In this document: positions 8,358 through 60,726 of the stretch, piece by piece | Layout: each line of letters begins with the position of its first letter | Numbering within the stretch: position 1 is the first letter of the stretch | Origin: Ardenticatenia bacterium | GTDB taxonomy: Bacteria > Chloroflexota > Anaerolineae > 4572-78 > NAK82 | DNA length: 64,000 bases | Direction: 5' to 3' | NCBI GenBank assembly: GCA_003130875.1 | Contig: QEXY01000043.1 | Location: 19,141 to 83,140, forward strand | Program-made: the position numbers and the translations under genes | The notes under the pieces: generated by a model | What the model was told of the DNA's origin: nothing | Databases searched by the model: none | Seen by the model: only the letters and a program-made list of their open reading frames with translations

Positions 8358-9911
8358 CTATGCACGCGGCTCCGCTGCACCCACTGCCTCGGTAATCGGA
8401 TGGGACATAACGCCGGCCATCCACAAGCCCAGTTCAGCACGGTCGACTTGCTCCGCTTCAACTGTGGCGACGATGCGACCTTTGTACATGACCGCGATGC
8501 GGTCAGCCAGCGACATGATCTCGTCTAGCTCTGCCGAGACTAGCAACACAGCCACCCCCTGATCGCGTGCTTGGATCAGCCGCTTGTGGATGAATTCAAT
8601 CGATCCGACATCCAGGCCACGGGTGGGCTGGGCAGCGATTAACAGCTTGATGGGACGCGAGAACTCGCGCGCCACGATCATCTTCTGCTGATTGCCCCCC
8701 GACAAGTTGTTCGCTGGCACATAGACACTCGGCGTACGGATGTCGAACTCATGCACCAACCGCCAGGCGTGCTCTTCGATAGCCCGATGGTTGAGGACGA
8801 ATCCCTGGGCGAAGGGCGGACGGTAATACGTGTTCAGCACCAGGTTGTCGGCGACAGGATATTTGCCCACCATGCCATGCTCGTGACGGTCTTCGGGGAT
8901 ATGCGCGACGCCTTGCTCGGAAATGCGACGCGGTGAGACATTTGTCACCTCAACGCCGTCAATCATCACGTGTCCGGCGACACTGGGCCGCAGGCCGGTG
9001 AGCGCTTCTACCAATTCGGTCTGGCCGTTGCCTTGCACCCCAGCAATCCCCAACACTTCTCCAGCGCGCACTTCGAACGTGGCGCCGTTGACCACCATCG
9101 AACCTCGGTCGTCCAAAACCTTGAGATCTCGCACCTCTAGCACCGTTCTTCCCGGCCGCGCCGGCTGTTTCTCCACCGTGAGGATCACCTCACGCCCCAC
9201 CATCATGGCAGCCAGTGAGCTTTGGGTGGCGTCGGATGGCCGGGTGGTGCCCACTACGCGACCGTTGCGCAACACCGTGATGCGGTCGGCCACCGCAAAC
9301 ACCTCGCCCAGCTTGTGCGTGATGAAGATGATGCTCTTCCCTTGCGCTGCCAGCTCGCGCATAATGGTGAACAGATCATCCACTTCTTGGGGAGTCAGCA
9401 CTGCGGTGGGCTCATCGAGGATGAGAATGTTGGCCTGACGGTAGAGTGCTTTGACGATCTCCACACGCTGCTGGACGCCCACCGGCAAGTCTTTGATGTA
9501 GGCGTTCGGATCGACCTCTAAGCCATATTGGCGTGAGATCTCACGAATGCGTTGCGCGGCAGTGTTCCGGTCGAGCACAAAGCCACCCTTCACGATCTCT
9601 GTGCCCAGCATGATGTTTTCGGCCACTGTCATAACCGGGATGAGCATAAAGTGCTGGTGTACCATGCCGATGCCCAACCGGATGGCATCGGTGGGCGCGC
9701 CGATATGCACTTCATGGCCGTTCAGAAAAATGTGCCCTTCATCAGGGCGGTAGAGACCATAGAGGATGTTCATCAGAGTGGATTTTCCGGCACCGTTCTC
9801 GCCCAACAGGCAATGAATCTCACCCTTCTCCAGGGCGAAATCGACGTGGTCGTTGGCCAGGACACCCGGAAACCGTTTAGTGATGCCGCGCATCTCCAGA
9901 GCGAAGGTCAT
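8358..9911 (-). CDS. ABC transporter ATP-binding protein, duplicated ATPase (sugar/nucleoside-importer type)
   Basis: 517 aa. Walker A 'GENGAGKST'; two ABC signatures ('LPVGVQQRVEI', 'LSGGNQQKMIV') and two Walker B motifs. Confidence 0.9.
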   Translation of the reverse strand: MTFALEMRGITKRFPGVLANDHVDFALEKGEIHCLLGENGAGKSTLMNILYGLYRPDEGHIFLNGHEVHIGAPTDAIRLGIGMVHQHFMLIPVMTVAENIMLGTEIVKGGFVLDRNTAAQRIREISRQYGLEVDPNAYIKDLPVGVQQRVEIVKALYRQANILILDEPTAVLTPQEVDDLFTIMRELAAQGKSIIFITHKLGEVFAVADRITVLRNGRVVGTTRPSDATQSSLAAMMVGREVILTVEKQPARPGRTVLEVRDLKVLDDRGSMVVNGATFEVRAGEVLGIAGVQGNGQTELVEALTGLRPSVAGHVMIDGVEVTNVSPRRISEQGVAHIPEDRHEHGMVGKYPVADNLVLNTYYRPPFAQGFVLNHRAIEEHAWRLVHEFDIRTPSVYVPANNLSGGNQQKMIVAREFSRPIKLLIAAQPTRGLDVGSIEFIHKRLIQARDQGVAVLLVSAELDEIMSLADRIAVMYKGRIVATVEAEQVDRAELGLWMAGVMSHPITEAVGAAEPRA

Positions 9912-10183
9912 AAATACACCATCCTTCTCGGACTTTTTTCAAGGCTTCCCAATTGTCGCGCCTCTGGTGATGGGGTAGGCACTGAGATGAAGCATAGACA
10001 TATCCGCGCCCGGGGCAGGCACATCCCGCGGTTGTTCCCTGGGGTGGCTATGATCATTGACTCGTCAGACCTCGGTGTGCCTTGAGCTCAGAACAAAAAT
10101 CATCCGCAACGGGGATAAGAGATGCCGCTTCGCCTTGCACAACCCAATCTCTCTTGCCACGAGCTGCCCCGTCGGACATCTCT

Positions 10184-10212
10184 ATGATAACAGAGCTGTC
10201 AAGGTATGTCAA
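10184..10212 (-). promoter_or_regulatory. sigma70-type promoter TTGACA-17-TATCAT for the BMP ABC operon
   Basis: Minus strand reads TTGACA-taccttgacagctctgt-TATCAT. It lies ~265 nt upstream of the ATPase start and 2 nt from repeat copy 1. Confidence 0.45.
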
Positions 10213-10214
10213 TC

Positions 10215-10304
10215 GAGAGTATTGAAAAACTCTTTAGTTACACGCTTTATTGGCCCATTTTCCTATGAAAATCTGAGCGGTCAAGGGACTTTTTCAACAC
10301 CCTC
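10215..10304 (+). repeat. ~90-nt hairpin repeat, copy 1
   Basis: GAGAGTATTGAAAAACTCTTTAGTTACACGC...GGTCAAGGGACTTTTTCAACACCCTC. Near-identical to copies at 21817, 41138 and 57557. Flanked by direct GTCAATC(G). Confidence 0.9.
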
Positions 10305-10516
10305 GTCAATCGGCGCAAGAAAGGGGCATTTCACCTTTGGGAAAGCTAGGTCAAACCAGGTCGCGTGTATGTAAACGTCGCGTATTCACCACCGCGCATG
10401 CGGAAAGAGATATGGAAAACTCTGCGGACCTCTGGACCCTCTGTAGTGAAAAAAACTTTCTATCAGCCGCCACTCCAATTCACCCCCAAATGGAAATATC
10501 CTCATTTCTCCATCAT

Positions 10517-11344
10517 TCATTTCACGCCGTTATTTTCCCGCTCCGATGTTTTCCGACGCAGAGTCACATCTCCGACGAGAATGGAGATCGTACGGCCATC
10601 GGGGAGGTGAAGGAGTAACGCTCCCGTTTCGTCTACCGATTCGGCAAATCCTGAGAAGGTACCCTCAGGTGCGACCACAGTGACCTCTTGGCCCAATGGT
10701 AACAAATGCGCCGCCCACTCAGACACAGGGCTATGTCCTGCACGCAATGCCTCGTAGCGTCTCTCCACATGTGAGAGCAAAGAGGTTAGCAAGGGCAAAC
10801 GGGCGACCGGACGACCTATTGCCTCGGAGAGGCTGATGGCAGTGCCACTCAGCTCGGGCAGCTGGCTGAAGTCTACATTGACGTTCAATCCCATACCCAC
10901 GATGACCCAGGCTATTTTGTTCTCCTGAGATATTTCGATCTCTGTGAGGATCCCGGCCAGCTTTTTGTCGCGGAGCAGCACGTCGTTGGGCCATTTGAGA
11001 TTGGGACGTAGGCCGGTCACTTCATATACAGCATCCGCTATCGCCAGCGCACAGACCATTGTCACCCACTGAGCACGGTTCGGCAGCAGAAAAGTGGGTC
11101 GGAAAAGGATGGAGAATAGAAGGCTGGACCGTGCCGGCGCGATCCATTTTCGGGCCATGCGGCCGCGACCGCACAACTGCTCGTCGGCAATAACAAGTGT
11201 CCCCTCTGTGGCTCCCTGTTCTGCCAGACGCTTGAGTTCATCCTGGGTTGAGCTGGTCGTCCTGTGAAAGACAGTCGGCCGTCCCACCCAACGTGTCATC
11301 AAGGCTGCGGTGATCACCTCTGCCGAGAGATCATATCCTGTCAT
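10517..11344 (-). CDS. birA: biotin--[acetyl-CoA-carboxylase] ligase (class I, no HTH)
   Basis: 'GRGRMARKWIAP' biotin-ligase motif. ATG at 11344 overlaps the upstream stop (ATGA). The longer ORF-track start at 11383 was rejected. Confidence 0.85.
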   Translation of the reverse strand: MTGYDLSAEVITAALMTRWVGRPTVFHRTTSSTQDELKRLAEQGATEGTLVIADEQLCGRGRMARKWIAPARSSLLFSILFRPTFLLPNRAQWVTMVCALAIADAVYEVTGLRPNLKWPNDVLLRDKKLAGILTEIEISQENKIAWVIVGMGLNVNVDFSQLPELSGTAISLSEAIGRPVARLPLLTSLLSHVERRYEALRAGHSPVSEWAAHLLPLGQEVTVVAPEGTFSGFAESVDETGALLLHLPDGRTISILVGDVTLRRKTSERENNGVK

Positions 11345-21291: not shown

Positions 21292-21660
21292 ATGAGTTAC
21301 TTGGGAAATGCTATCTGGCTGATCTTTGGCGGTTTGCTGGCCGCCTTCGTCTACATCACCGGAGGTGCGATTATTTGTCTGACGGTAGTGGGAATTCCCT
21401 TCGGTCTCCAGTGTATTAAACTGGGTGTTGCCATGCTGGCGCCTTTTGGCAAAGAACTGCACCGGTCACCCCAAGCGAGTGACACACTATACGTCATTAT
21501 GAATCTCATTTGGTTTATTTTATTTGGCTGGCAGATTGCCTTGCTTCATCTGACATTGGCACTTGTCCTTGCCCTGACGCTTATTGGCTTGCCGTTTGCC
21601 AAGCAGCATATTAAGCTCATCCCTCTGGCCCTGTTCCCATTCGGGCACGATCTGGTCTAA
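21292..21660 (+). CDS. YccF-domain inner membrane protein
   Basis: 122 aa. Duplicated 'IWLIFGG...GIPFG' / 'IWFILFGW...GLPFA' pattern. Confidence 0.7.
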   Translation: MSYLGNAIWLIFGGLLAAFVYITGGAIICLTVVGIPFGLQCIKLGVAMLAPFGKELHRSPQASDTLYVIMNLIWFILFGWQIALLHLTLALVLALTLIGLPFAKQHIKLIPLALFPFGHDLV

Positions 21661-21816
21661 GTGTCACTTTCGTGTTCCAAGCACGTTTCATCGCTGAGCA
21701 CGCAGAGAGCGCAAAGCATAACAAGGGCGGGGAAAGATTTTGTATCCCCTGCGGTGGAAAAACCTTCTGCATGCGGTCGTTCCAATGCCCTAAGTCGAAA
21801 TACACCCCCTAAAAAT

Positions 21817-21906
21817 GAGGGTGTTGAAAAAGTCCCTTGACCACTCAGATTTTCATAGGAAAATGGGCCAATAAAGCGGGTAACTAAAGAGTTTTTCAAC
21901 TCTCTC
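21817..21906 (-). repeat. ~90-nt hairpin repeat, copy 2 (inverted relative to copies 1, 3, 4)
   Basis: GAGGGTGTTGAAAAAGTCCCTTGACCACTCAG...AAAGAGTTTTTCAACTCTCTC, the reverse complement of the family consensus. Confidence 0.9.
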
Positions 21907-21913
21907 AGATTAA

Positions 21914-21942
21914 TTGACAGCGCAATGCGGGTGACATATAAT
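21914..21942 (+). promoter_or_regulatory. consensus sigma70 promoter TTGACA-17-TATAAT for tRNA-Val
   Basis: Both hexamers are perfect with a 17-nt spacer. The -10 ends 15 nt before the tRNA 5' end. Confidence 0.65.
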
Positions 21943-21957
21943 GAAGACATCCTGAAC

Positions 21958-22031
<74 letters not shown>

Positions 22032-24933: not shown

Positions 24934-26826
24934 TCACCAACGTGGCACGAAGCGAAGCGCATCAAAGGCGATCATACGGGTGCCGTAGAGTTCACGCGTG
25001 TTGTCGTACACCACCACAAACTCATTACCCATGGCAGCGAAGTAATACGTCCCCAAGCTTACCCATTGATCGTTGTACTGCCACTGGTTGATGATGCGGT
25101 CGTGGCGCTGGCCGGCGTGGATGATGCGATAGCGCACGCGCGTGCTGGTGGCAAACTCGCGCGGGATAAAGGCGAACACCTCGTAGTAACCGGGTGCCGC
25201 GAGACGCGGCACCCATTTGCCGAAGTTGACCGGATTGGTATAGCTGTTAAAGGTCCAATAGAGACTTCCACCGATTCCCAAATAGGCGATACGACGTGAG
25301 CCCAGCGGTCCTCCCCAGATGAAACCAGGGTCTGTGTTGTCCACCATGACCTCCACGCCGACGGGCGGTGGGTAGGGCGGGTAATAGGGTGGGTAGTAGG
25401 GGGGCACCGGAGTAGGCACCGGGGTAGGGAACACCGGGGGTGGTGCACCACCTGCGGTCCACCATACAGAGATCAGTGCGAACTGAGAACGCTCATAGTA
25501 GTCCACTTGCACGCGATGGGTGCCAATGTTAAGCGCTTTGACTCCGCAATGCACCGCCGCCGCCTGCTCGAACCACGAGTCGATCACCAGCGCGCCATCC
25601 ACGTACAGCCGCACGCCGTCGTCATGGCGGGCGCAGAAGGTGTAGGTACCATTGTCAAACCACACCTCGCGCGTCCATCGGATGGAGAAATCGTCTGCCG
25701 GCATGCCGGGAGCGGGTGGCCCCCAGCCCCAATCGAAATTGATTTCTGCATCGACGCGTGTCAGCACGGGAGGGCCGCCCAAGAAGGTATTATTGAAGTA
25801 CTCACCGTACCAGCCGGTCGCGGGCGGTGGCACCGGTGTCGGATATGGCCAGGGCCATGGAGGTGCTGGTGTAGGTGCCGGCGGAGGGGGAGGGGGCGGT
25901 GCCGGCGGCAGGGCACTGCCGGAGCTATAGGAGAAGACGATGATCGCATCGCCGCGTTTCTGCAGATAGGCCACCTGAACAGTGTGTCGCCCGGCTGTGA
26001 TATAGCGCGATGCGCAGAACGTGCGCACGCTCTGCTCGCGCCACTCATCCAGGATAAGCACGCCGTCCACCCACACGCGCACACCATCATCCACAGTGGC
26101 GCAGAAATTGTAGGTGCCCGCAGCGAAATTGATGTCGCGTGTCCAGCGCACCGAGTACTCGTAAGCAGGCAACCCAACGGCTGGCGAGTTGGTGCCCCAG
26201 TTGAAGTTGATCTGAGGATCCATGCGCACCATCACGGGCGGCTTGGCCGGCGAGACGCTGGCACCCAGCATCATGTCATCGTAGTACTCGCCGACCCAGG
26301 CCTCTGCCGGTGAGGGTGGCCACGGCACCGGCGGCCCGGGCGATGGCACCGGCGGCAGCGGGCCGCTCCACACCAGGCGGGCCATAGCATTGCCGGTGTC
26401 CTCGAAATAGGCCATCTGCAAGGTGTGGTTGCCTGCGGTCAGATAGGGGCTTGCGCAGTAGGTCACCGACGCACCGGTCACCCGCCACTGGTCGATAAGC
26501 AGCTGGCCATCCACCCAGAATCGCACCCCATCGTCCACTGTGGCACAGAAATTGTAAGTGCCAGCATTGAAGCTCATCGTGCGTGTCCAGCGCACGGAGA
26601 ACTGATCGATGGGCACTGCTGCACTGGGCGAACCTGTGCCCCACACGTAGTCAATGCTGGGCTCATAGCGGGTGAGGACAGGTGGCCCTGCCAGGCTGTG
26701 ATTGGCGAAATACTCGGCAAACCAGCCCGGGTCCTGAGCAGGTGGAGAGGCCATCACCGCTGCCGGCAACGTGTTCGCCAACAGTGCCAGAAGTACCACA
26801 AGCCATGTGAGTATGCGTTTCATCAT
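24934..26826 (-). CDS. secreted protein with three PA14 domains, Pro-rich linkers and a C-terminal golvesin-C-like beta-sandwich domain
   Basis: Signal peptide. Three ~125-aa repeats ('F.EY...P...R.D..I.F.WG...P......FSVRWTR...F.AGTY.FCA..DDGVR.WVDG') separated by PPxP linkers. Confidence 0.8.
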   Translation of the reverse strand: MMKRILTWLVVLLALLANTLPAAVMASPPAQDPGWFAEYFANHSLAGPPVLTRYEPSIDYVWGTGSPSAAVPIDQFSVRWTRTMSFNAGTYNFCATVDDGVRFWVDGQLLIDQWRVTGASVTYCASPYLTAGNHTLQMAYFEDTGNAMARLVWSGPLPPVPSPGPPVPWPPSPAEAWVGEYYDDMMLGASVSPAKPPVMVRMDPQINFNWGTNSPAVGLPAYEYSVRWTRDINFAAGTYNFCATVDDGVRVWVDGVLILDEWREQSVRTFCASRYITAGRHTVQVAYLQKRGDAIIVFSYSSGSALPPAPPPPPPPAPTPAPPWPWPYPTPVPPPATGWYGEYFNNTFLGGPPVLTRVDAEINFDWGWGPPAPGMPADDFSIRWTREVWFDNGTYTFCARHDDGVRLYVDGALVIDSWFEQAAAVHCGVKALNIGTHRVQVDYYERSQFALISVWWTAGGAPPPVFPTPVPTPVPPYYPPYYPPYPPPVGVEVMVDNTDPGFIWGGPLGSRRIAYLGIGGSLYWTFNSYTNPVNFGKWVPRLAAPGYYEVFAFIPREFATSTRVRYRIIHAGQRHDRIINQWQYNDQWVSLGTYYFAAMGNEFVVVYDNTRELYGTRMIAFDALRFVPRW

Positions 26827-39642: not shown

Positions 39643-40953
39643 CTACTGTGCCCACTTGGTGAAGTTCTCCAGCGCTTCGGGATTCTGTGAGGCCCACTTG
39701 TCGATGACATCCTGGGTCATCTGGGCAAGCTCTTCGGGTGTCTTCTCGCCGGCGAAGAGCAGCTGTGTGCCGGCAAAGTTGGCCTGCTCGTCCATCATGC
39801 TAGGTATGAAGTTCTCCAGGTTGGGCCCTGGGATCGTGGTCGCCCATTCATAAATCTGCTTGAGCTGGGGTTGCTCGATCAGTGACACATCCAGCCGGTC
39901 ATCCGCTGGCAGGACACCAGTGTACTGGAACCAAGCATTCAACCGATCCTGAGTGTGCATGAACATCAAGAAATCCGCCGCCTCCTGCTTATGTTTTGAC
40001 CAGGAGGTGATCCCCAGTCCTTGGGCAGTGACAATATACTGACTGGCCATCTTGCCGTCGGCGTACTTCGGCACCAGCATTACCCCGATGTTGTCCCAGC
40101 TGCCCATTGTGTCGGCCCAACCCTTCAGGAAGGTGTCATTGCCGAAGATCATGGCGGCCTGGCCCTGCACAAAGCGGTCCATCCCCTGCTGGTAGTCGAG
40201 TGAGTTGATGTCCTCGTTCCAGCAGCCGGCATCGCGCAGCTCGGCCAACCGTTTCCACCACTCGACGTGCTTAGGGTCGGTGAACTTGGTCTTGCCGATC
40301 ACCGCTGCCATTATGTCCTTCTCGCTGTCGTGAGGCTGACGTCCCAGAATGGAATAGAGCCAGCCACCGAACCAGCCATCCTTGAGCCCGCCGGAAATGG
40401 GGATGACGTTGATCGCTCTGAGTTTGCCACAAGCATCGATCAACGCATCCCAGGTCTCCAAGGGTTTCTTGGGATCGAGACCAGCTTTCTCGAAGAGGGA
40501 GGGGTTGTAGACGAACGGGTTACCGGAGAGATACCACGGCACGCCCCAGATCTTGCCATCGAAGGTGCGCTCGAAGTTATTGATATAATGGGCGAGCTCA
40601 TCAGCGGGGATGAGGTCGTCAATGGGTGCTACTCCACCACCCCAGGCAAATTCGAGCGTCCAAACACCACCCCAAAAGTATTGGATATCTGGGCCTTCCT
40701 GAGCAGCCATTGCCGACTGGAAGGAGGGGATCAAACTGTCGGTCGATTGCAAGACTTCCTCGATGGTGACATTGGGGTGCTTTTCCTGATAGAGCTGGAT
40801 GGTTTCATCGAGCCACTTCTGAGCACCGGGGGCTTCTTGCTCACCCCACCACCACATCACCAGCTTGACCGGCTCAGCTGCCTGGACCGTCAAGGGGGAT
40901 GTTGTCAACATACACAGTGTTACGACGAGCAGGGCATACAGGAAACGCTTCAT
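39643..40953 (-). CDS. CUT1-type ABC sugar-binding protein
   Basis: ATG 40953 is preceded by AAAGGAGGAAAAGG. Signal peptide 'MKRFLYALLVVTLCMLTTSPLTVQA'. Confidence 0.85.
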   Translation of the reverse strand: MKRFLYALLVVTLCMLTTSPLTVQAAEPVKLVMWWWGEQEAPGAQKWLDETIQLYQEKHPNVTIEEVLQSTDSLIPSFQSAMAAQEGPDIQYFWGGVWTLEFAWGGGVAPIDDLIPADELAHYINNFERTFDGKIWGVPWYLSGNPFVYNPSLFEKAGLDPKKPLETWDALIDACGKLRAINVIPISGGLKDGWFGGWLYSILGRQPHDSEKDIMAAVIGKTKFTDPKHVEWWKRLAELRDAGCWNEDINSLDYQQGMDRFVQGQAAMIFGNDTFLKGWADTMGSWDNIGVMLVPKYADGKMASQYIVTAQGLGITSWSKHKQEAADFLMFMHTQDRLNAWFQYTGVLPADDRLDVSLIEQPQLKQIYEWATTIPGPNLENFIPSMMDEQANFAGTQLLFAGEKTPEELAQMTQDVIDKWASQNPEALENFTKWAQ

Positions 40954-41094
40954 TGTCCTTTTCCTCCTTTGGTTTAAAATTAAGGACCTGTCTCTGTACC
41001 TCACAATGAAATTGGTTATCGCAGGAACCACAAAACAACAAACTCGCCGGCGACAACGTGGGATGATTGGGGAAGCCGGCTACTACTTTTACAG

Positions 41095-41124
41095 CATCTT
41101 AGCACCCTTACAGGACAAAGTCAA
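41095..41124 (-). promoter_or_regulatory. promoter TTGACT-18-TAAGAT
   Basis: Read on the minus strand. Lies 13 nt from repeat copy 3 and ~140 nt upstream of the SBP start. Confidence 0.4.
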
Positions 41125-41137
41125 GGGAAAATAGTAG

Positions 41138-41226
41138 GAGGGTGTTGAAAAACTCTTTAGTTACCCGCTTTATTGGCCCATTTTCCTATGAAAATCTGAG
41201 CGGTCAAGGGATTTTTCAACACCCTC
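41138..41226 (+). repeat. ~90-nt hairpin repeat, copy 3
   Basis: GAGGGTGTTGAAAAACTCTTTAGTTACCCGCTTTATTGGCCCATTTTCCTATGAAAATCTGAGCGGTCAAGGGATTTTTCAACACCCTC, with perfect 15-nt terminal inverted repeats. Confidence 0.9.
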
Positions 41227-41396: not shown

Positions 41397-42419
41397 CTAT
41401 AGGTCGACCGGACGACCAGTGGCAGCCGATTCTTCAATGGCGGCAGCCACCCGAACCGCTGCCAATCCCTCTTCGCCTGTGGCAAGGACAGGCTCGTTGT
41501 ACACAACTGCATCCACAAAGCGAGCAATCGCTTCCAATGCGAATCCACCGATGCGGTGTCGGCTAGTAGGAGTCGCCCCCAGCACATCGGCATAGGAAAT
41601 TGTGCCGCCGATGTGCTTTTCGATCGCCCCATGATGGGATGTGTTCACATATAGCGCTCCTTGGCTACCTAGCAGCTGCATACGGAACTCATAGACCATG
41701 GGATGGCTGCGAGGCAAGATCCAGGCGTTCTCAAAGGTCACCACCGTGCCCTTTTCGAACTCAGCGATTGCAACATGGAAGTCCTTGGTATTTACCCCCA
41801 TGCCTCGCAGGATACCGGCGCGATCCACTGCATACACGCGCCGCACCCTATCCTGCAACAGGTAATGCATAATATCGATGGTATGGCTACCCAGGAACCA
41901 CAGGGCAGAGCTTTTGCTTCCCCAGGTCAACATTTCCATGGGCACCCAGGTGGTGTTGCTGAGGCGGATGTAGCCGTATGCAGGTGTGCCGATCTCACCC
42001 GCATCAACGCTTTGTTTGGCTGCCACAAAGGGAGGACTAACACGGTTATGGTAATCTACCATGAGTTTGACACCTGCACGGCGCGTTGCCTCCAAGATGT
42101 CCTGGGCATCCTGAACGTTGGTCGCCAGCGGTTTCTCACACAAGATGTGCTTGCCTGCCTGTGCGGCTGCTACAGCGATGTCGCGGTGCGCAAAGTCGGG
42201 TGTGGCGATGGACACCGCCTGAATGTCTGGGTGTTTCAGCAGCTGCTCGTAATCAGTGTACCAGGTACGCGCACCGTATTTCTCCGCGACAGCGCGTGCT
42301 CGCTTCGCATCGAGATCGCACACTGCCACTAGCTCTGCCTCCGGCAGGCGACTGTATACCAGAGCATGATTCTCACCGAAGATGCCGGTACCGATGACAC
42401 CAAATCCTACCTTGTCCAT
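41397..42419 (-). CDS. Gfo/Idh/MocA-family NAD(P)-dependent oxidoreductase
   Basis: 'GFGVIGTGIFG' Rossmann start and 'EKPLA' motif. 340 aa. Confidence 0.85.
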   Translation of the reverse strand: MDKVGFGVIGTGIFGENHALVYSRLPEAELVAVCDLDAKRARAVAEKYGARTWYTDYEQLLKHPDIQAVSIATPDFAHRDIAVAAAQAGKHILCEKPLATNVQDAQDILEATRRAGVKLMVDYHNRVSPPFVAAKQSVDAGEIGTPAYGYIRLSNTTWVPMEMLTWGSKSSALWFLGSHTIDIMHYLLQDRVRRVYAVDRAGILRGMGVNTKDFHVAIAEFEKGTVVTFENAWILPRSHPMVYEFRMQLLGSQGALYVNTSHHGAIEKHIGGTISYADVLGATPTSRHRIGGFALEAIARFVDAVVYNEPVLATGEEGLAAVRVAAAIEESAATGRPVDL

Positions 42420-56722: not shown

Positions 56723-57490
56723 TCAACCTTGCAGTTCAGCATAGAGCACATAACGGTCGCCACGGTGATAGTAACGCAGATACTCCACCGGCACGTCGCC
56801 CTGGGTGTAGGAAACGCGTTCCACGTATAGGAGAGGGGCGCGCGCCGGCACTTTTAGCAGGTGTGCGATGGCGTTCGGCGCCGCGATAGCACGGATGGTC
56901 TGTCGGGCACGCACCAGGCGGATGCCGTACTCGCGTTCCAGTGTCTCGCGCAGAGGTTGGGCAGCATAATCATAGCGCAGTACACCCGGGCAATAACGGT
57001 GCACTAGGTGAGATTCTTCGATGCTCATCGGCTCGTCGTCGGCCAGGCGCAGCCGTTTCAGCAGGGCTAACTCCTCCCCAGGGGATATGTGCAGGTGTGT
57101 CGCGATGTCGAGTGGTGCGCTGATGAGCTCGGCTGAGAGCACCTGAGTGCCCGGCCGCAGGCCGCGGCGGCGCATATCCTCGGTGAAGCTAATGATGCGT
57201 GTCAACCCCTGCTCCACAGTCGGATGTGCCACGAAGGAGCCGCGACCACGCTGGCGGAAGATAAGCCCTTCCTTGACCAACAGGTCCAGCACCTGACGCA
57301 CAGTGGTGCGACTTACATGGTATTGCTGCACCAATTCTGATTCAGGTGGGATCATCTCACCAGGTTGCCAAGCACCGCTGAGGATGCGCTCGCGCAGGAT
57401 CTCATAGAGCTGATGGTACAACGGTAGCTTGCTGTTGCGGTCAATGAGCAGTCCAGACAGGCTAGCAGGAGCAGAAGGCATATTCATCAT
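56723..57490 (-). CDS. GntR-family transcriptional regulator (HutC subfamily, UTRA domain)
   Basis: 'LPPESELVQQYHVSRTTVRQVLDLLVKEGLI' wHTH plus a UTRA effector domain. Confidence 0.85.
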   Translation of the reverse strand: MMNMPSAPASLSGLLIDRNSKLPLYHQLYEILRERILSGAWQPGEMIPPESELVQQYHVSRTTVRQVLDLLVKEGLIFRQRGRGSFVAHPTVEQGLTRIISFTEDMRRRGLRPGTQVLSAELISAPLDIATHLHISPGEELALLKRLRLADDEPMSIEESHLVHRYCPGVLRYDYAAQPLRETLEREYGIRLVRARQTIRAIAAPNAIAHLLKVPARAPLLYVERVSYTQGDVPVEYLRYYHRGDRYVLYAELQG

Positions 57491-57513: not shown

Positions 57514-57542
57514 ATTATAACATATACGCGCCCAAAAGTCAA
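57514..57542 (-). promoter_or_regulatory. promoter TTGACT-17-TATAAT for the GntR-kinase-transketolase unit; overlapping imperfect palindrome TGTTATAATGTTGTTACA (57505-57522)
   Basis: Read on the minus strand. The -35 lies 14 nt from repeat copy 4. The GT...AC palindrome is compatible with a GntR-type operator. Confidence 0.55.
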
Positions 57543-57556
57543 GCTCGTGGGCACTC

Positions 57557-57647
57557 GAGGGTGTTGAAAAAAGTCTTTAGTTACCCGCTTTATTGACCCA
57601 TTTTCCTATGAAAATCTGAGCGGTCAAGGGACTTTTTCAACACCCTC
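57557..57647 (+). repeat. ~90-nt hairpin repeat, copy 4
   Basis: GAGGGTGTTGAAAAAAGTCTTTAGTTACCCGCTTTATTGACCC...GGGACTTTTTCAACACCCTC. Confidence 0.9.
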
Positions 57648-57654
57648 TACATAC

Positions 57655-57922
57655 TCAGGGGAAGTAGCGGTAAATATCCTTGCGGGGCAATATCCTGACG
57701 AAAATAACCTCGTCTCCGACCACTTCCATCCCAATCCGAATAGTCCTCTATGCACAGGCGATAGAAGGTTGCATATCCTCGCAGTTTGCTCACGTTCCGG
57801 ATCTCGTGTAACCCGAGACCATTTTGACTTCGCTGATCACTCGCTCAACCTGCTCGAGCACCGCCTGGTCGTGGATCTTTTTTCAGATCGCGCGCAAAGC
57901 TCGCCTCAAAGGAGACCTTCAC
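57655..57922 (-). pseudogene. RelE/ParE-family toxin pseudogene (three frameshifts)
   Basis: Joining three frames gives 'VKVSFEASFARDLKK|IHDQAVLEQVERVISEVKMVSG|LHEIRNVSKLRGYATFYRLCIEDY|RIGMEVVGDEVIFVRILPRKDIYRYFP*'. Length is 268 nt (3n+1). One indel lies in the A6 run at 57878-57883. Confidence 0.75.
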
Positions 57923-58319: not shown

Positions 58320-60116
58320 TCACGGTTGTTTTGTCGCCGGTGGGGACGTATCAAAAGGAATACGCGCTTCAACCGGTGCCTCAAACTTCAAGGGCACGAT
58401 GCGCACTTCATAATGAGCCGGTGGTGCCTTGAGGAGGTCAAAATCGGGATGATCGGGTTGTGCTCTGAGCGCCAGTTCAAAACGGCCTTCTTCTTGAACT
58501 TCGCCACGCTGTGTCTCCGGAATAGCCCACTCCACCAGCTGCCCCTCGCGCCAGAGCTCTGCCTGGATCAGTTGTCCAGGCGGCAAAGGCAACGTGCCTT
58601 CGATGTGGATCAGACCAGGTTTGATGGTCAACCTCAGATCGCGCACCGGGATCGGGATGCGGGTAGGCGTGGGTTCTATCTCGGTTGGACCAATGCTGGG
58701 GGCTTCCGCAACGTCTGGCTCGACTGACGTTGGCGTGATCAGTACACCCTCCTCAGCAATCGAGGTCAGAGTCCCCTCGGTTGGTGATACCGTGGGCACT
58801 TCGACGGGCACGATTGGGGTCTCGGTTTCGGGAGGCGCAGCCTCCACCTCCGCGGCAGGTGATGGCTCGGCCGATAGCACTTCGCCCGGAGGCGATGTTA
58901 CGGGCACTTCGGCAGGCATGGCCGGAATTTCGGTTTCGGGAGGCACCGCTTTCGCCTCCGCAGTAGGTGACGGCTCAGCCGATACCTCGGGCACTTCGAC
59001 CGGGGGCGGTGTGGTGGGAACTTCGACGGGCACGGCCGGGGTCTCGGTTTCGGGAGGTATAACCGCTGCCGCCGCGACGGGCGAGGGTTCAGCTGCTGTC
59101 TCCGGCATTTCGGTGGGCTTGACCGGTGTCGTAACGGCAGGTGGAAGATCAGATGGCGCTGCCGCTTTCTCGGCGGACGGTGTGGGTGCTGCAGGTATCG
59201 TGGTCGTCGGTGGCACGGCCGCTCCGATGGCAGCAGGTGAAGGCTCGGACGGTATCACAACCTCTTCAGTTGGGGGTTGCGCCACAGGTGCCTCGGTTGC
59301 TGCGGACACTACCATCGCCCCTGCCGTGGGTGGGATGGTAAATGACGGCTCAGGGGACGCAGCACCCACATAGCGCTGCGCACGCATGTCCTCTTCAACG
59401 GTTGCCTCCCCTGGCACTTCGGCTTGCTGTGGTGATGGCTGCGCTCCCGCAGCGCTTTCGCGTTCCGGTTGCACCACAAGCGGTGTAGGGGAAGGTGTCC
59501 CATACTCTTCTCTTGCTTCCGGTGATGGCGTGGGTATTGGCGCGGGAGGTTCACCCGGCTGACCTGGAATAGGTGAGGCCGGCATTGACCCTGGCAGGGA
59601 TGATTCAGCGGACGGGCTGAGCACATCACGCGCGACTGCAGGACTTGAGACGGTTGGGGTAGCTGTGCTTGTAACACCCGGGATTGATACGACGGTGGGT
59701 ATGCCGGGTATACTGTGGGTGACCGGCACCCGCGCGAGTGGCATCACAGGCCTGTATGAGACGATCTGGTTGTACAAGAGAACCCCTGCCAGCATGATGA
59801 TGCACATCAGTGCTGCCAGCCCAGTGGCTAAGCCCGGCACGCCAAAAAGCCAGCGCCATACCGGCGGTCTTGCCGGAGCGACCCATTCCGGGTGCAGGGT
59901 GAAGGGATAGGGCGGTGTGACGGGAGGCAACCGGTTCAGCAAACGCACCACCTGACGCAAGGATTCTAGCTCACGCTGACATACTGGACAGGTGGACAGG
60001 TGTTGCTCGACCAGGTAGCGCTCCCGATCATCCACCTGACCGTCCAGGTAGGCCGAAAGCAGCTGGGCAACCTTTTGATGGAGCAGATGATCCGAGCTAG
60101 GTTGTTTCCTCTTCAT
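58320..60116 (-). CDS. anti-sigma factor (zf-HC2), single TM, long Pro/Thr/Glu/Ala-rich extracytoplasmic region and small C-terminal domain
   Basis: 'HLSTCPVCQRELESL' zinc-finger motif. TM segment 'GLATGLAALMCIIMLAGVLLY'. ATG 60116 overlaps the sigma gene by 20 nt. Confidence 0.8.
   Translation of the reverse strand: MKRKQPSSDHLLHQKVAQLLSAYLDGQVDDRERYLVEQHLSTCPVCQRELESLRQVVRLLNRLPPVTPPYPFTLHPEWVAPARPPVWRWLFGVPGLATGLAALMCIIMLAGVLLYNQIVSYRPVMPLARVPVTHSIPGIPTVVSIPGVTSTATPTVSSPAVARDVLSPSAESSLPGSMPASPIPGQPGEPPAPIPTPSPEAREEYGTPSPTPLVVQPERESAAGAQPSPQQAEVPGEATVEEDMRAQRYVGAASPEPSFTIPPTAGAMVVSAATEAPVAQPPTEEVVIPSEPSPAAIGAAVPPTTTIPAAPTPSAEKAAAPSDLPPAVTTPVKPTEMPETAAEPSPVAAAAVIPPETETPAVPVEVPTTPPPVEVPEVSAEPSPTAEAKAVPPETEIPAMPAEVPVTSPPGEVLSAEPSPAAEVEAAPPETETPIVPVEVPTVSPTEGTLTSIAEEGVLITPTSVEPDVAEAPSIGPTEIEPTPTRIPIPVRDLRLTIKPGLIHIEGTLPLPPGQLIQAELWREGQLVEWAIPETQRGEVQEEGRFELALRAQPDHPDFDLLKAPPAHYEVRIVPLKFEAPVEARIPFDTSPPATKQP
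58780..59110 (-). repeat. in-frame imperfect tandem repeats (~108-114 nt x3, plus a degenerate fourth further upstream in the gene)
   Basis: The motif tcggtttcggg recurs at ~58822, 58930 and 59044. It encodes 'AEPSP.A....PPETE.P..P.EVP' units. Borders are approximate. Confidence 0.6.
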
Positions 60117-60726
60117 CACGTATGAGCTGACGATATTTGTCGGGCAGAAGTTCCGGGTGCGCGGCCAGAAGATAGTCGCGCAGCTTGGCGCGCGCACGAC
60201 TCAACCTTGATTTAACCGTTCCTAATGGGATACCTGTGATCTCGGCGATTTCCTGATAGGTGAACCCTTGTACATCCGAGAGGACGATAATCGCACGTTG
60301 ATCGGCCGGCAGACTGGCAATGCCGCTCTGAAGGACATCGGCGAGCTCACGGCTCATAATCTGTTCCTCTGGGCCAGCGCCTTCATGGGTCATCCAGGAG
60401 AAATGTTCGGGATTTTCCCCTGCATCCTCGCTTGTGGTCAACTCCTCCAGGGAGTGTGCTGGCCGACGGCGCTGATATCGCAGGTGGTCATAGCACATGT
60501 TGGTCACAATGCGCAACAGCCAGCTCTTGAAAGAGCTACCGCGCAGCGCACGGATATGCCTGAAGGCAGAGAGAAACGCTTCCTGGCACACATCAGCGGC
60601 AGCATCTGCATCACCCATAATGCGATAGGCCACATTATAAGCGAGATTCTGATATGCCAGAACCAAGCGGTTGAAGGCTCTCAGATCGCCGCGCTGGGCT
60701 CGCGCGACCGTCTCCATTTCATCCAT
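60097..60726 (-). CDS. ECF-type RNA polymerase sigma factor
   Basis: 209 aa. Region 2 'FNRLVLAYQNLAYNVAYRIMGDADAAADVCQEAFL' and region 4 'QEIAEITGIPLGTVKSRLSRAR'. Confidence 0.9.
   Translation of the reverse strand: MDEMETVARAQRGDLRAFNRLVLAYQNLAYNVAYRIMGDADAAADVCQEAFLSAFRHIRALRGSSFKSWLLRIVTNMCYDHLRYQRRRPAHSLEELTTSEDAGENPEHFSWMTHEGAGPEEQIMSRELADVLQSGIASLPADQRAIIVLSDVQGFTYQEIAEITGIPLGTVKSRLSRARAKLRDYLLAAHPELLPDKYRQLIRDEEETT

Follow-up and report, generated by a model that had tools for sequence, protein, structure and literature searches.

The region between the stop codon of the yccF gene and the tRNA-Val gene starting at 21958 raises the question of what kind of repeated element it carries, and why this element, which occurs four times in the 64-kb stretch of DNA that was analysed (hereafter, the window), lies immediately ahead of a strong promoter at each of its places. 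In a preliminary description, the element had been taken to be the whole stretch from the stop codon to the promoter, with a gene end, a repeat, and a promoter in fixed order. These boundaries were too wide, as the repeated unit comprises only 90 bp. The span 21661-21957 is composed of a unique spacer, the 90-bp element at 21817-21906, and the host promoter (Table 1). In copies 1 to 3, the 156 to 212 nt that follow the stop codon and precede the element are unique sequence, and pairwise local alignments of the spacers upstream of the four copies score no better than shuffled sequences. A longer composite element was therefore rejected, the upstream spacers having no similarity in common.

The other observations of the preliminary description on the window are largely confirmed. 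All four copies were located, copy 2 is inverted on the chromosome together with its flanking genes, and the gaps given between element and promoter (2, 7, 13, and 14 nt) are exact. The promoter hexamers are correct for all four copies; only the spacer of the copy 3 promoter differs, which measures 17 nt and had been given as 18. The flanking genes agree as well: Pfam matches identify a BirA-type ligase ending at 10517 (copy 1), YccF ending at 21660 (copy 2), and a GFO/IDH/MocA protein ending at 41397 (copy 3), while a RelE/ParE-like frame ending at 57655 is interrupted by an in-frame stop (copy 4). Downstream of the four copies we find an ABC ATPase, the tRNA-Val, a sugar-binding-protein gene (39643-41031), and a GntR/UTRA gene (56723-57490), respectively, with the copy 3 and copy 4 promoters lying upstream of the latter two. 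A profile built from all copies gives each window copy about 98 to 100 bits in one orientation and 16 to 21 bits in the other, and this gap makes the orientation of the copies unambiguous.

Table 1. Positions of the four MITE copies in the window and of the features next to or within them.
Feature	Position	Strand	Remark
MITE copy 1	10215-10304	(-)	90 bp
Copy 1 TSD, left copy GATTGAC	10305-10311	(-)	
Copy 1 TSD, right copy GATTGAC	10208-10214	(-)	overlaps -35 hexamer
Copy 1 host promoter, TTGACA-17-TATCAT, 11/12	10184-10212	(-)	2 nt past MITE right end
Unique spacer, yccF stop to copy 2	21661-21816	(+)	outside repeat
MITE copy 2	21817-21906	(+)	90 bp; nhmmer 99.8 bits forward, 17 bits reverse
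Internal promoter-like TTGACC-16-GAAAAT, 9/12, within copy 2	21837-21864	(+)	same direction as host promoter
Copy 2 host promoter, TTGACA-17-TATAAT, 12/12	21914-21942	(+)	7 nt past MITE right end
MITE copy 3	41138-41226	(-)	89 bp; left TIR short of one G
Copy 3 host promoter, TTGACT-17-TAAGAT, 9/12	41096-41124	(-)	13 nt past MITE right end
MITE copy 4	57557-57647	(-)	91 bp
Copy 4 host promoter, TTGACT-17-TATAAT, 11/12	57514-57542	(-)	14 nt past MITE right end

Two further repeat families occur in the window. One has three 121-nt copies with a spacing of 444 to 468 nt at 25571-26603, within ORF 24934-26826 (-), and the other has three tandem units of 108 to 114 nt at 58769-59104, within ORF 58320-60197 (-), which encodes a zf-HC2 anti-sigma-like protein. 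Both families probably encode repeated protein domains. The RelE/ParE-like toxin pseudogene next to copy 4 (57655-57900, -) has retained an intact C-terminus (…RIGMEVVGDEVIFVRILPRKDIYRYFP*), with in-frame stops further upstream, and copy 4 begins 7 nt after its stop codon. At another locus, L003, the MITE TSD takes in the stop codon of a PIN-type toxin gene.

The consensus of the element is GAGGGTGTTGAAAAAGTCCCTTGACCGCTCAGATTTTCATAGGAAAATGGGCCAATAAAGCGGGTAACTAAAGAGTTTTTCAACACCCTC. Its unit length is 89 to 96 bp across all copies (89 to 91 bp in the window), and both ends of every copy carry TIRs of 16 to 19 bp, GAGGGTGTTGAAAAAG...CTTTTTCAACACCCTC. Perfect direct repeats of 6 to 9 bp, most often 7 bp, abut the ends in 13 of 21 copies and also in the diverged copy L006b (14 of 22), examples being GATTGAC at copy 1, TGGTAAAG, TGGTTTT, GTAGTTT, GCCGACC, and CTGAAGG. 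The copies without a TSD are older ones with decayed ends; in copy 2, the left TIR reads GAGGGTGTTGAAAAAG, the right TIR is degenerate (TTTTTCAACTCTCTC), and no TSD is recognisable. Apart from the TSDs, the flanks of the 22 independent loci are unrelated. The element is therefore mobile, in agreement with one of the three roles proposed for it in the preliminary description, a mobile element with a target preference just upstream of -35 boxes, and its TIRs and TSDs explain why it is repeated. The element has no transposase coding capacity, the sole open frame being a 30-codon read-through on the reverse strand across the whole element. Judged by its sequence, the repeat is a non-coding 90-bp MITE of an IS5/IS1182-superfamily IS.

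The interior is 91 to 98% conserved between lineages. Phased A/T tracts and a perfect internal palindrome, ATTTTC-N4-GAAAAT, are kept in nearly all copies, and all four window copies contain a promoter-like TTGACC-16-GAAAAT that points rightward to the downstream gene, the -35-like part of which is the most variable segment among lineages. A further TTGACC lies subterminally at the left end and has no counterpart at the right end. The terminal pair at element positions 4 and 87 reads GAGGG/CCCTC, GAGGG/CTCTC, or GAGAG/CCCTC, and never GAGAG/CTCTC. At the level of the ends, GAGGG/CTCTC and GAGAG/CCCTC are mutual reverse complements, which suggests two end variants with the interior flipped relative to the termini.

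Exact-pattern scans detected four loci in the genome collection and two in the metagenome collection, neither of which contains the window's own genome, and all six lie in Anaerolineae MAGs or on unnamed metagenome contigs. The protein collection was queried with the translation of the element's concatenated reading frames, resulting in 15 spurious "proteins" (P0001 to P0015), whose contigs yielded more copies. BLAST and nhmmer searches over all fetched sequence gave 22 independent copies, 4 in the window and 18 further ones, spread over at least five Anaerolineae populations. The contig of locus L021 is the window's copy 2 locus, so that JGI sample 3300038964 contains the window's organism. 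Twelve of the 22 copies were found via spurious ORF calls, and there is no evident reason why this route should favour promoter-adjacent copies. A scan of viral contigs with the core pattern gave no matches, and the plasmid collection has no match to the element; 29 single viral-contig matches to the 16-base TIR pattern were disregarded, as this is about the number estimated for chance.

The spurious public ORFs correspond to the open reverse-strand frame of the MITE (…RVLKNSLVTRFIGPFSYENLSGQGTFSTPS…). One of them, P0008, carries the JGI name "phosphopantothenoylcysteine synthetase/decarboxylase" on this frame, and the window ORF 21657-21950 (-) is P0006. The element thus seeds spurious protein predictions in public databases.

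The position of the element relative to -35 boxes is non-random, as are its spacing and orientation. A promoter match of at least 9/12 starting no more than 25 nt from the right end is found for 11 of 20 evaluable copies, compared with 1.8% of the ORF-free positions of the same DNA, which served as background (binomial P ~ 8e-15), and such matches are found at only 3 of 21 left ends (right versus left, Fisher p = 0.009). The result is similar for the hexamer itself: 11 of 21 copies carry an exact TTGAC[AT] on their right flank, compared with 0.86% of background positions (P ~ 6e-18), and 1 of 22 carries one on the left flank. The gaps from the right end to this hexamer are 2, 7, 11, 11, 12, 12, 13, 13, 13, 14, and 18 nt, eight of the 11 falling within a 4-nt window of 11 to 14 nt. 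With a 7-bp duplication, the target heptamer ends 4 to 7 nt ahead of the hexamer, the centres of heptamer and -35 box being about one helical turn apart. The orientation bias amounts to about 11:1 when judged by TTGAC and to about 14:2 when judged by promoter calls. Where the gene context is co-directional it reaches 7:0, and where the context is divergent, about 8:2. Both features described for the window, the closeness to a -35 box and the biased orientation, persist in the 18 additional copies from other genomes. In the window itself, the four copies adjoin about a third of the strongest promoter matches in the 64 kb.

Several of the promoters are credible because a tRNA, an rRNA operon, or a TPP riboswitch follows at the right distance, namely the tRNA-Val downstream of copy 2, a complete rRNA operon at L014, and a TPP riboswitch at L022. 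A tRNA also lies downstream at L020, where the promoter is 77 nt from the element. This locus belongs to the five or six of 21 copies that have no adjoining promoter on the right flank (L004, L007, L015, L016, and L020). L015 and L016 have a promoter at the left end, at a distance of 15 to 16 nt, and L004 and L007 are located between convergent genes, with no promoter. Copy 1 and L023 have a TTGAC at 12 nt without a canonical -10 partner, indicating that the spacing tracks the hexamer more tightly than it tracks a complete promoter.

Some of these loci have particular features. At copy 1, the TSD GATTGAC overlaps the -35 hexamer, so that the insertion struck the -35 box itself. The target contained TTGACA twice, at a distance of 10 nt. 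Part of the first hexamer was duplicated by the insertion, and the second, 12 nt from the element, is the one without a -10 partner. About 270 nt (9912-10183, -) separate the copy 1 promoter from ORF 8358-9911, the first long one in the ABC operon. An Rfam scan of this region gave no match, and the region could be an unusually long leader or could contain an uncalled small gene. At L016 (6901-6990, -), the downstream gene, of 586 aa, has its called start just 36 nt past the right end of the MITE, which leaves no room for a promoter there. Unless this start is miscalled, transcription would have to begin inside the element or run through it, via the internal TTGACC-16-GAAAAT. At L007 (10054-10143, -), the MITE follows a multicopper-oxidase stop codon in a convergent intergenic region, and about 40 to 80 nt beyond the MITE comes a canonical hairpin with T-run (CCTCATC…GATGAGGTTTTTT); the MITE is presumably transcribed there as part of the 3'UTR.

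The co-directional gene end, which had been regarded as a fixed part of the layout, is present at the four window copies but is not general among the further copies. According to gene tables and ORFs, 7 contexts are co-directional, 10 divergent, 2 convergent, and 2 unknown. The proposal that the element is an insulator or terminator, in which an RNA hairpin formed by the TIRs would halt read-through from the upstream gene, fits the co-directional gene end preceding all four window copies and the long hairpin predicted, with z scores of about -5 (-33 to -35 kcal/mol), in copies 3 and 4. However, the opposite strand folds just as well, and copies 1 and 2, with their decayed right TIR, fold only weakly (z of -1.4 and -0.8 for copy 2). 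No T-run follows the hairpin, the right arm being followed by target DNA; neither a hairpin with T-run nor any other terminator-like site was called in the four window copies. Moreover, about half of the copies (10 of 19 classifiable) have divergent neighbours, so that no upstream gene is transcribed towards the element, the element at L007 precedes a separate canonical terminator, and covariation is absent, with a covariation term of 0.13. A terminator function is therefore very improbable.

We regard it as equally improbable that the element is a small structured RNA gene or a cis-regulatory RNA leader common to several operons. The conservation of the interior between lineages would agree with such an RNA, and the internal promoter-like site could drive a short transcript. 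Nevertheless, Rfam scans at gathering thresholds of the window and 12 loci gave no family for the element, the only matches (tRNA, rRNA, riboswitch, and T-box) lying elsewhere, and a double change was seen in 1 of 29 pairs, with no compensatory changes. In addition, the host promoters are downstream of the element, placing it outside the leader, and its repetition is already accounted for by the TSDs and TIRs.

The third role considered in the preliminary description was that of an upstream promoter (UP) element, which in Escherichia coli is an A/T-rich sequence spanning roughly -38 to -59 from the start site. A T5 tract lies 10 to 14 nt inside the right end of the MITE, which at the modal gap corresponds to about -56 to -63. 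The gap between the element and the -35 box ranges from 2 to 18 nt, and the position of the tract shifts with it. The proximal UP position is occupied by target DNA instead of the element, and this role has at best weak support.

The MITE is related to longer elements that carry transposase sequences. A 1363-bp element (L001:6365-7727) has the same TIRs as the MITE and contains frameshifted DUF772 and DDE_Tnp_1 ORFs (PF05598 at 2e-19 and PF01609 at 2.7e-11). An 807-bp element (L026:2914-3720) is an internally deleted IS derivative with a right end as in the MITE, the two having only the terminal ~17 nt in common; it is oriented like the MITE and lies 8 nt ahead of TTGACA-18-TATAAT. A 151-bp element at L006 combines the TIRs of the MITE with a different interior. 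The transposase relatives are proteins of about 300 aa with DUF772 and DDE_Tnp_1 domains, and their best NCBIfam models are IS1182 (149 to 158 bits, cut-off 270) and IS5_4 (109 to 123 bits, cut-off 140). Because the scores are under both curated cut-offs, the transposase is filed at the superfamily level only. The ISs with the TIRs of the MITE were recovered only in frameshifted (L001) or internally deleted (L026) form, with no intact transposase gene among them, and as these degenerate copies are the only ones recovered, the mobilisation of the MITE in trans is a step that we infer.

The closest transposase relative, P0017, has 10 places that represent one single deletion-derivative locus. 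The relatives in the databases are mostly DUF772-only proteins of about 180 aa, with few fusions of about 300 aa, so that the transposase gene is either commonly split in these lineages (by a programmed frameshift?) or mostly decayed. Two independent head-to-tail tandems with a separation of exactly 6 nt were observed, one of a 90-bp MITE and the 1363-bp IS (L001 7823-6365, -) and one of the 151-bp MITE and a 90-bp MITE (L006 260-14, -). At L006, the final 2 nt of the upstream element form part of the TSD (TCACCTCT), showing that the 90-bp MITE was inserted later. The tandems had been considered as evidence for "TTGAAA-in-TIR" targeting, which was dropped because the downstream element is a later insertion.

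From the sequences of the 22 copies, the explanation that we consider probable is that the bias arises at insertion, with the transposase directing the element, in a preferred orientation, to sites beside -35 hexamers; later selection is less likely to be its cause. The MITE would most likely be moved in trans by a DDE transposase of about 300 aa (DUF772 and DDE_Tnp_1, IS5/IS1182 superfamily), which would recognise the shared 16- to 19-bp TIRs, cut the target with a stagger of about 7 bp, and place the element with its right end 2 to 18 nt (mode, 11 to 14 nt) upstream of TTGAC(A/T), facing the promoter. To set this pattern at insertion, the transposase might read TTGAC directly or dock on promoter-bound RNA polymerase or sigma. 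The orientation bias may come from an asymmetric transpososome, given the extra TTGACC at the left end, or from selection against the reverse orientation, in which the internal promoter-like site would fire antisense into the upstream gene. The difference between 7:0 in co-directional and about 8:2 in divergent contexts leaves room for such selection. Targeting at insertion is favoured by several observations: young copies with pristine TSDs already follow the pattern, the 807-bp IS derivative occupies the same kind of site in spite of its different interior, the downstream genes are functionally unrelated, and the spacing at copy 1 and L023 follows the hexamer and not the promoter function. 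If the pattern is set at insertion, the effects on the host promoters are probably small. The more specific reading, that this IS/MITE family practises promoter-directed integration by reading the -35 hexamer or docking on sigma-A/RNA polymerase, and inserts one turn upstream in a preferred orientation, is put forward tentatively. Several points speak against targeting: a position-dependent cis-regulatory function would yield the same preference for spacing and orientation, the near-symmetrical TIRs offer no obvious mechanical cause of an orientation bias, and five or six of 21 copies adjoin no right-flank promoter. Simple tolerance, with insertions surviving at harmless sites, was also considered and set aside, as copies 1 to 3 had 156 to 212 nt of free spacer at their disposal and landed 2 to 13 nt from the -35 box.

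The main alternative to targeting at insertion is that the MITE inserts roughly at random in intergenic DNA, and that promoter-adjacent, oriented copies are retained as a mobile cis-regulatory module. The module might act through its A/T-rich or curved DNA, through a regulator site at ATTTTC-N4-GAAAAT, or as an extra co-directional promoter by means of TTGACC-16-GAAAAT. The preservation of the A/T tracts and the palindrome in nearly all copies is consistent with this, as is the internal promoter-like site facing the downstream gene in every window copy; a position-dependent function would also need the 11- to 14-nt spacing and the orientation, and IS5 in E. coli is an example of activation from upstream. 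We nevertheless consider retention as a module unlikely. Positive selection would have to have acted in several species on more than 14 genes unrelated to one another, among them tRNA, rRNA, r-protein, transporter, regulator, and thiamine genes, whereas the pattern is already present in young copies with intact TSDs and in an IS derivative with a different interior. The gap of 2 to 18 nt corresponds to about 1.5 helical turns, leaving the A/T tracts without a fixed phase or the canonical UP position, and lineages differ most in the -35-like segment of the internal promoter. If the bias does come from selection, the element would be a portable promoter-modulating module.

As an object, the element is an ordinary bacterial MITE. 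Correia elements in Neisseria, RUP and BOX in Streptococcus pneumoniae, ERIC/IRU in enterobacteria, and Nezha in cyanobacteria are non-coding, multi-copy elements of about 100 to 150 bp with TIRs and TSDs, mostly intergenic, whose mobilisation is attributed to an IS transposase acting in trans and some of which contain promoter-like sequences. The Anaerolineae element shares the short non-coding form, the multi-copy occurrence, the TIRs, and the TSDs with them but has no sequence relationship to them and resides in a different host group, the Anaerolineae (Chloroflexota). Its TSD of about 7 bp without an internal target consensus differs from those of the named MITEs, and the 11- to 14-nt spacing to the -35 box and the orientation bias of about 11:1 are distinctive. 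A literature search on -35-targeting ISs and MITEs, Chloroflexi MITEs, and the TIR sequence found nothing relevant, and as far as this search reaches, the family is undescribed.

The 1363-bp and 807-bp elements contain fragments of DUF772 and DDE_Tnp_1, as in IS5/IS1182 transposases, although with scores below the curated cut-offs (155 against 270 and 123 against 140). The TSD of IS5 is typically 4 bp, and the 7-bp TSD of the Anaerolineae element is atypical in comparison. In E. coli, IS5 activates glpFK, flhDC, and fucAO from upstream, the effect on glpFK being orientation dependent. These E. coli cases are mutants obtained by selection at particular loci and do not amount to a genome-wide habit. 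At fucAO, the IS5 insertion is reported to create a fusion promoter (PMC11894529).

The habit of the element is unusual in that it sits, oriented and at tight spacing, about one helical turn ahead of generic -35 hexamers. If the bias is set at insertion, a simple bacterial transposase would be homing to generic promoter architecture, a rule of target selection that we did not find described for a bacterial IS or MITE in the literature searched. This would explain the high copy number (4 in 64 kb) in a compact genome without gene disruption, allow real promoters to be recognised from sequence in the Anaerolineae, a little-studied group, and offer a tractable system for how a transposase measures its distance from a -35 box. 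The element would then be a natural device marking, and possibly rewiring, sigma-A promoters genome-wide.

Defined distances and orientations are known from other transposons, which together with the IS5 effects in E. coli are the nearest functional parallels; none has the enzyme or the target in common with the Anaerolineae element. Tn7, whose TnsD acts at glmS, the "res hunters" Tn5053/Tn402, and IS1397, which inserts in REP loops, recognise protein-DNA complexes or structured sites and insert at a defined distance and in a specific orientation, in positions harmless to the host. They target one site per replicon or a dedicated repeat, whereas the apparent target of the Anaerolineae element is the generic sigma-A -35 box, at hundreds of loci. 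The retrotransposon Ty3 integrates at Pol III start sites and the Dictyostelium element TRE5-A about 48 bp upstream of tRNA genes, both at a fixed short upstream distance and in a preferred orientation, a "safe haven" that spares genes. As with these, tRNA and rRNA promoters are among the targets of the Anaerolineae element. The enzymes differ, being an integrase/LTR or non-LTR system tethered by TFIIIB/TFIIIC in Ty3 and TRE5-A and, putatively, a DDE IS transposase here; the domain of life differs as well, and the likeness is functional only. If the bias is indeed set at insertion, the Anaerolineae element would represent a bacterial DDE-transposon counterpart of the Ty3/TRE5-type "safe-haven" targeting.
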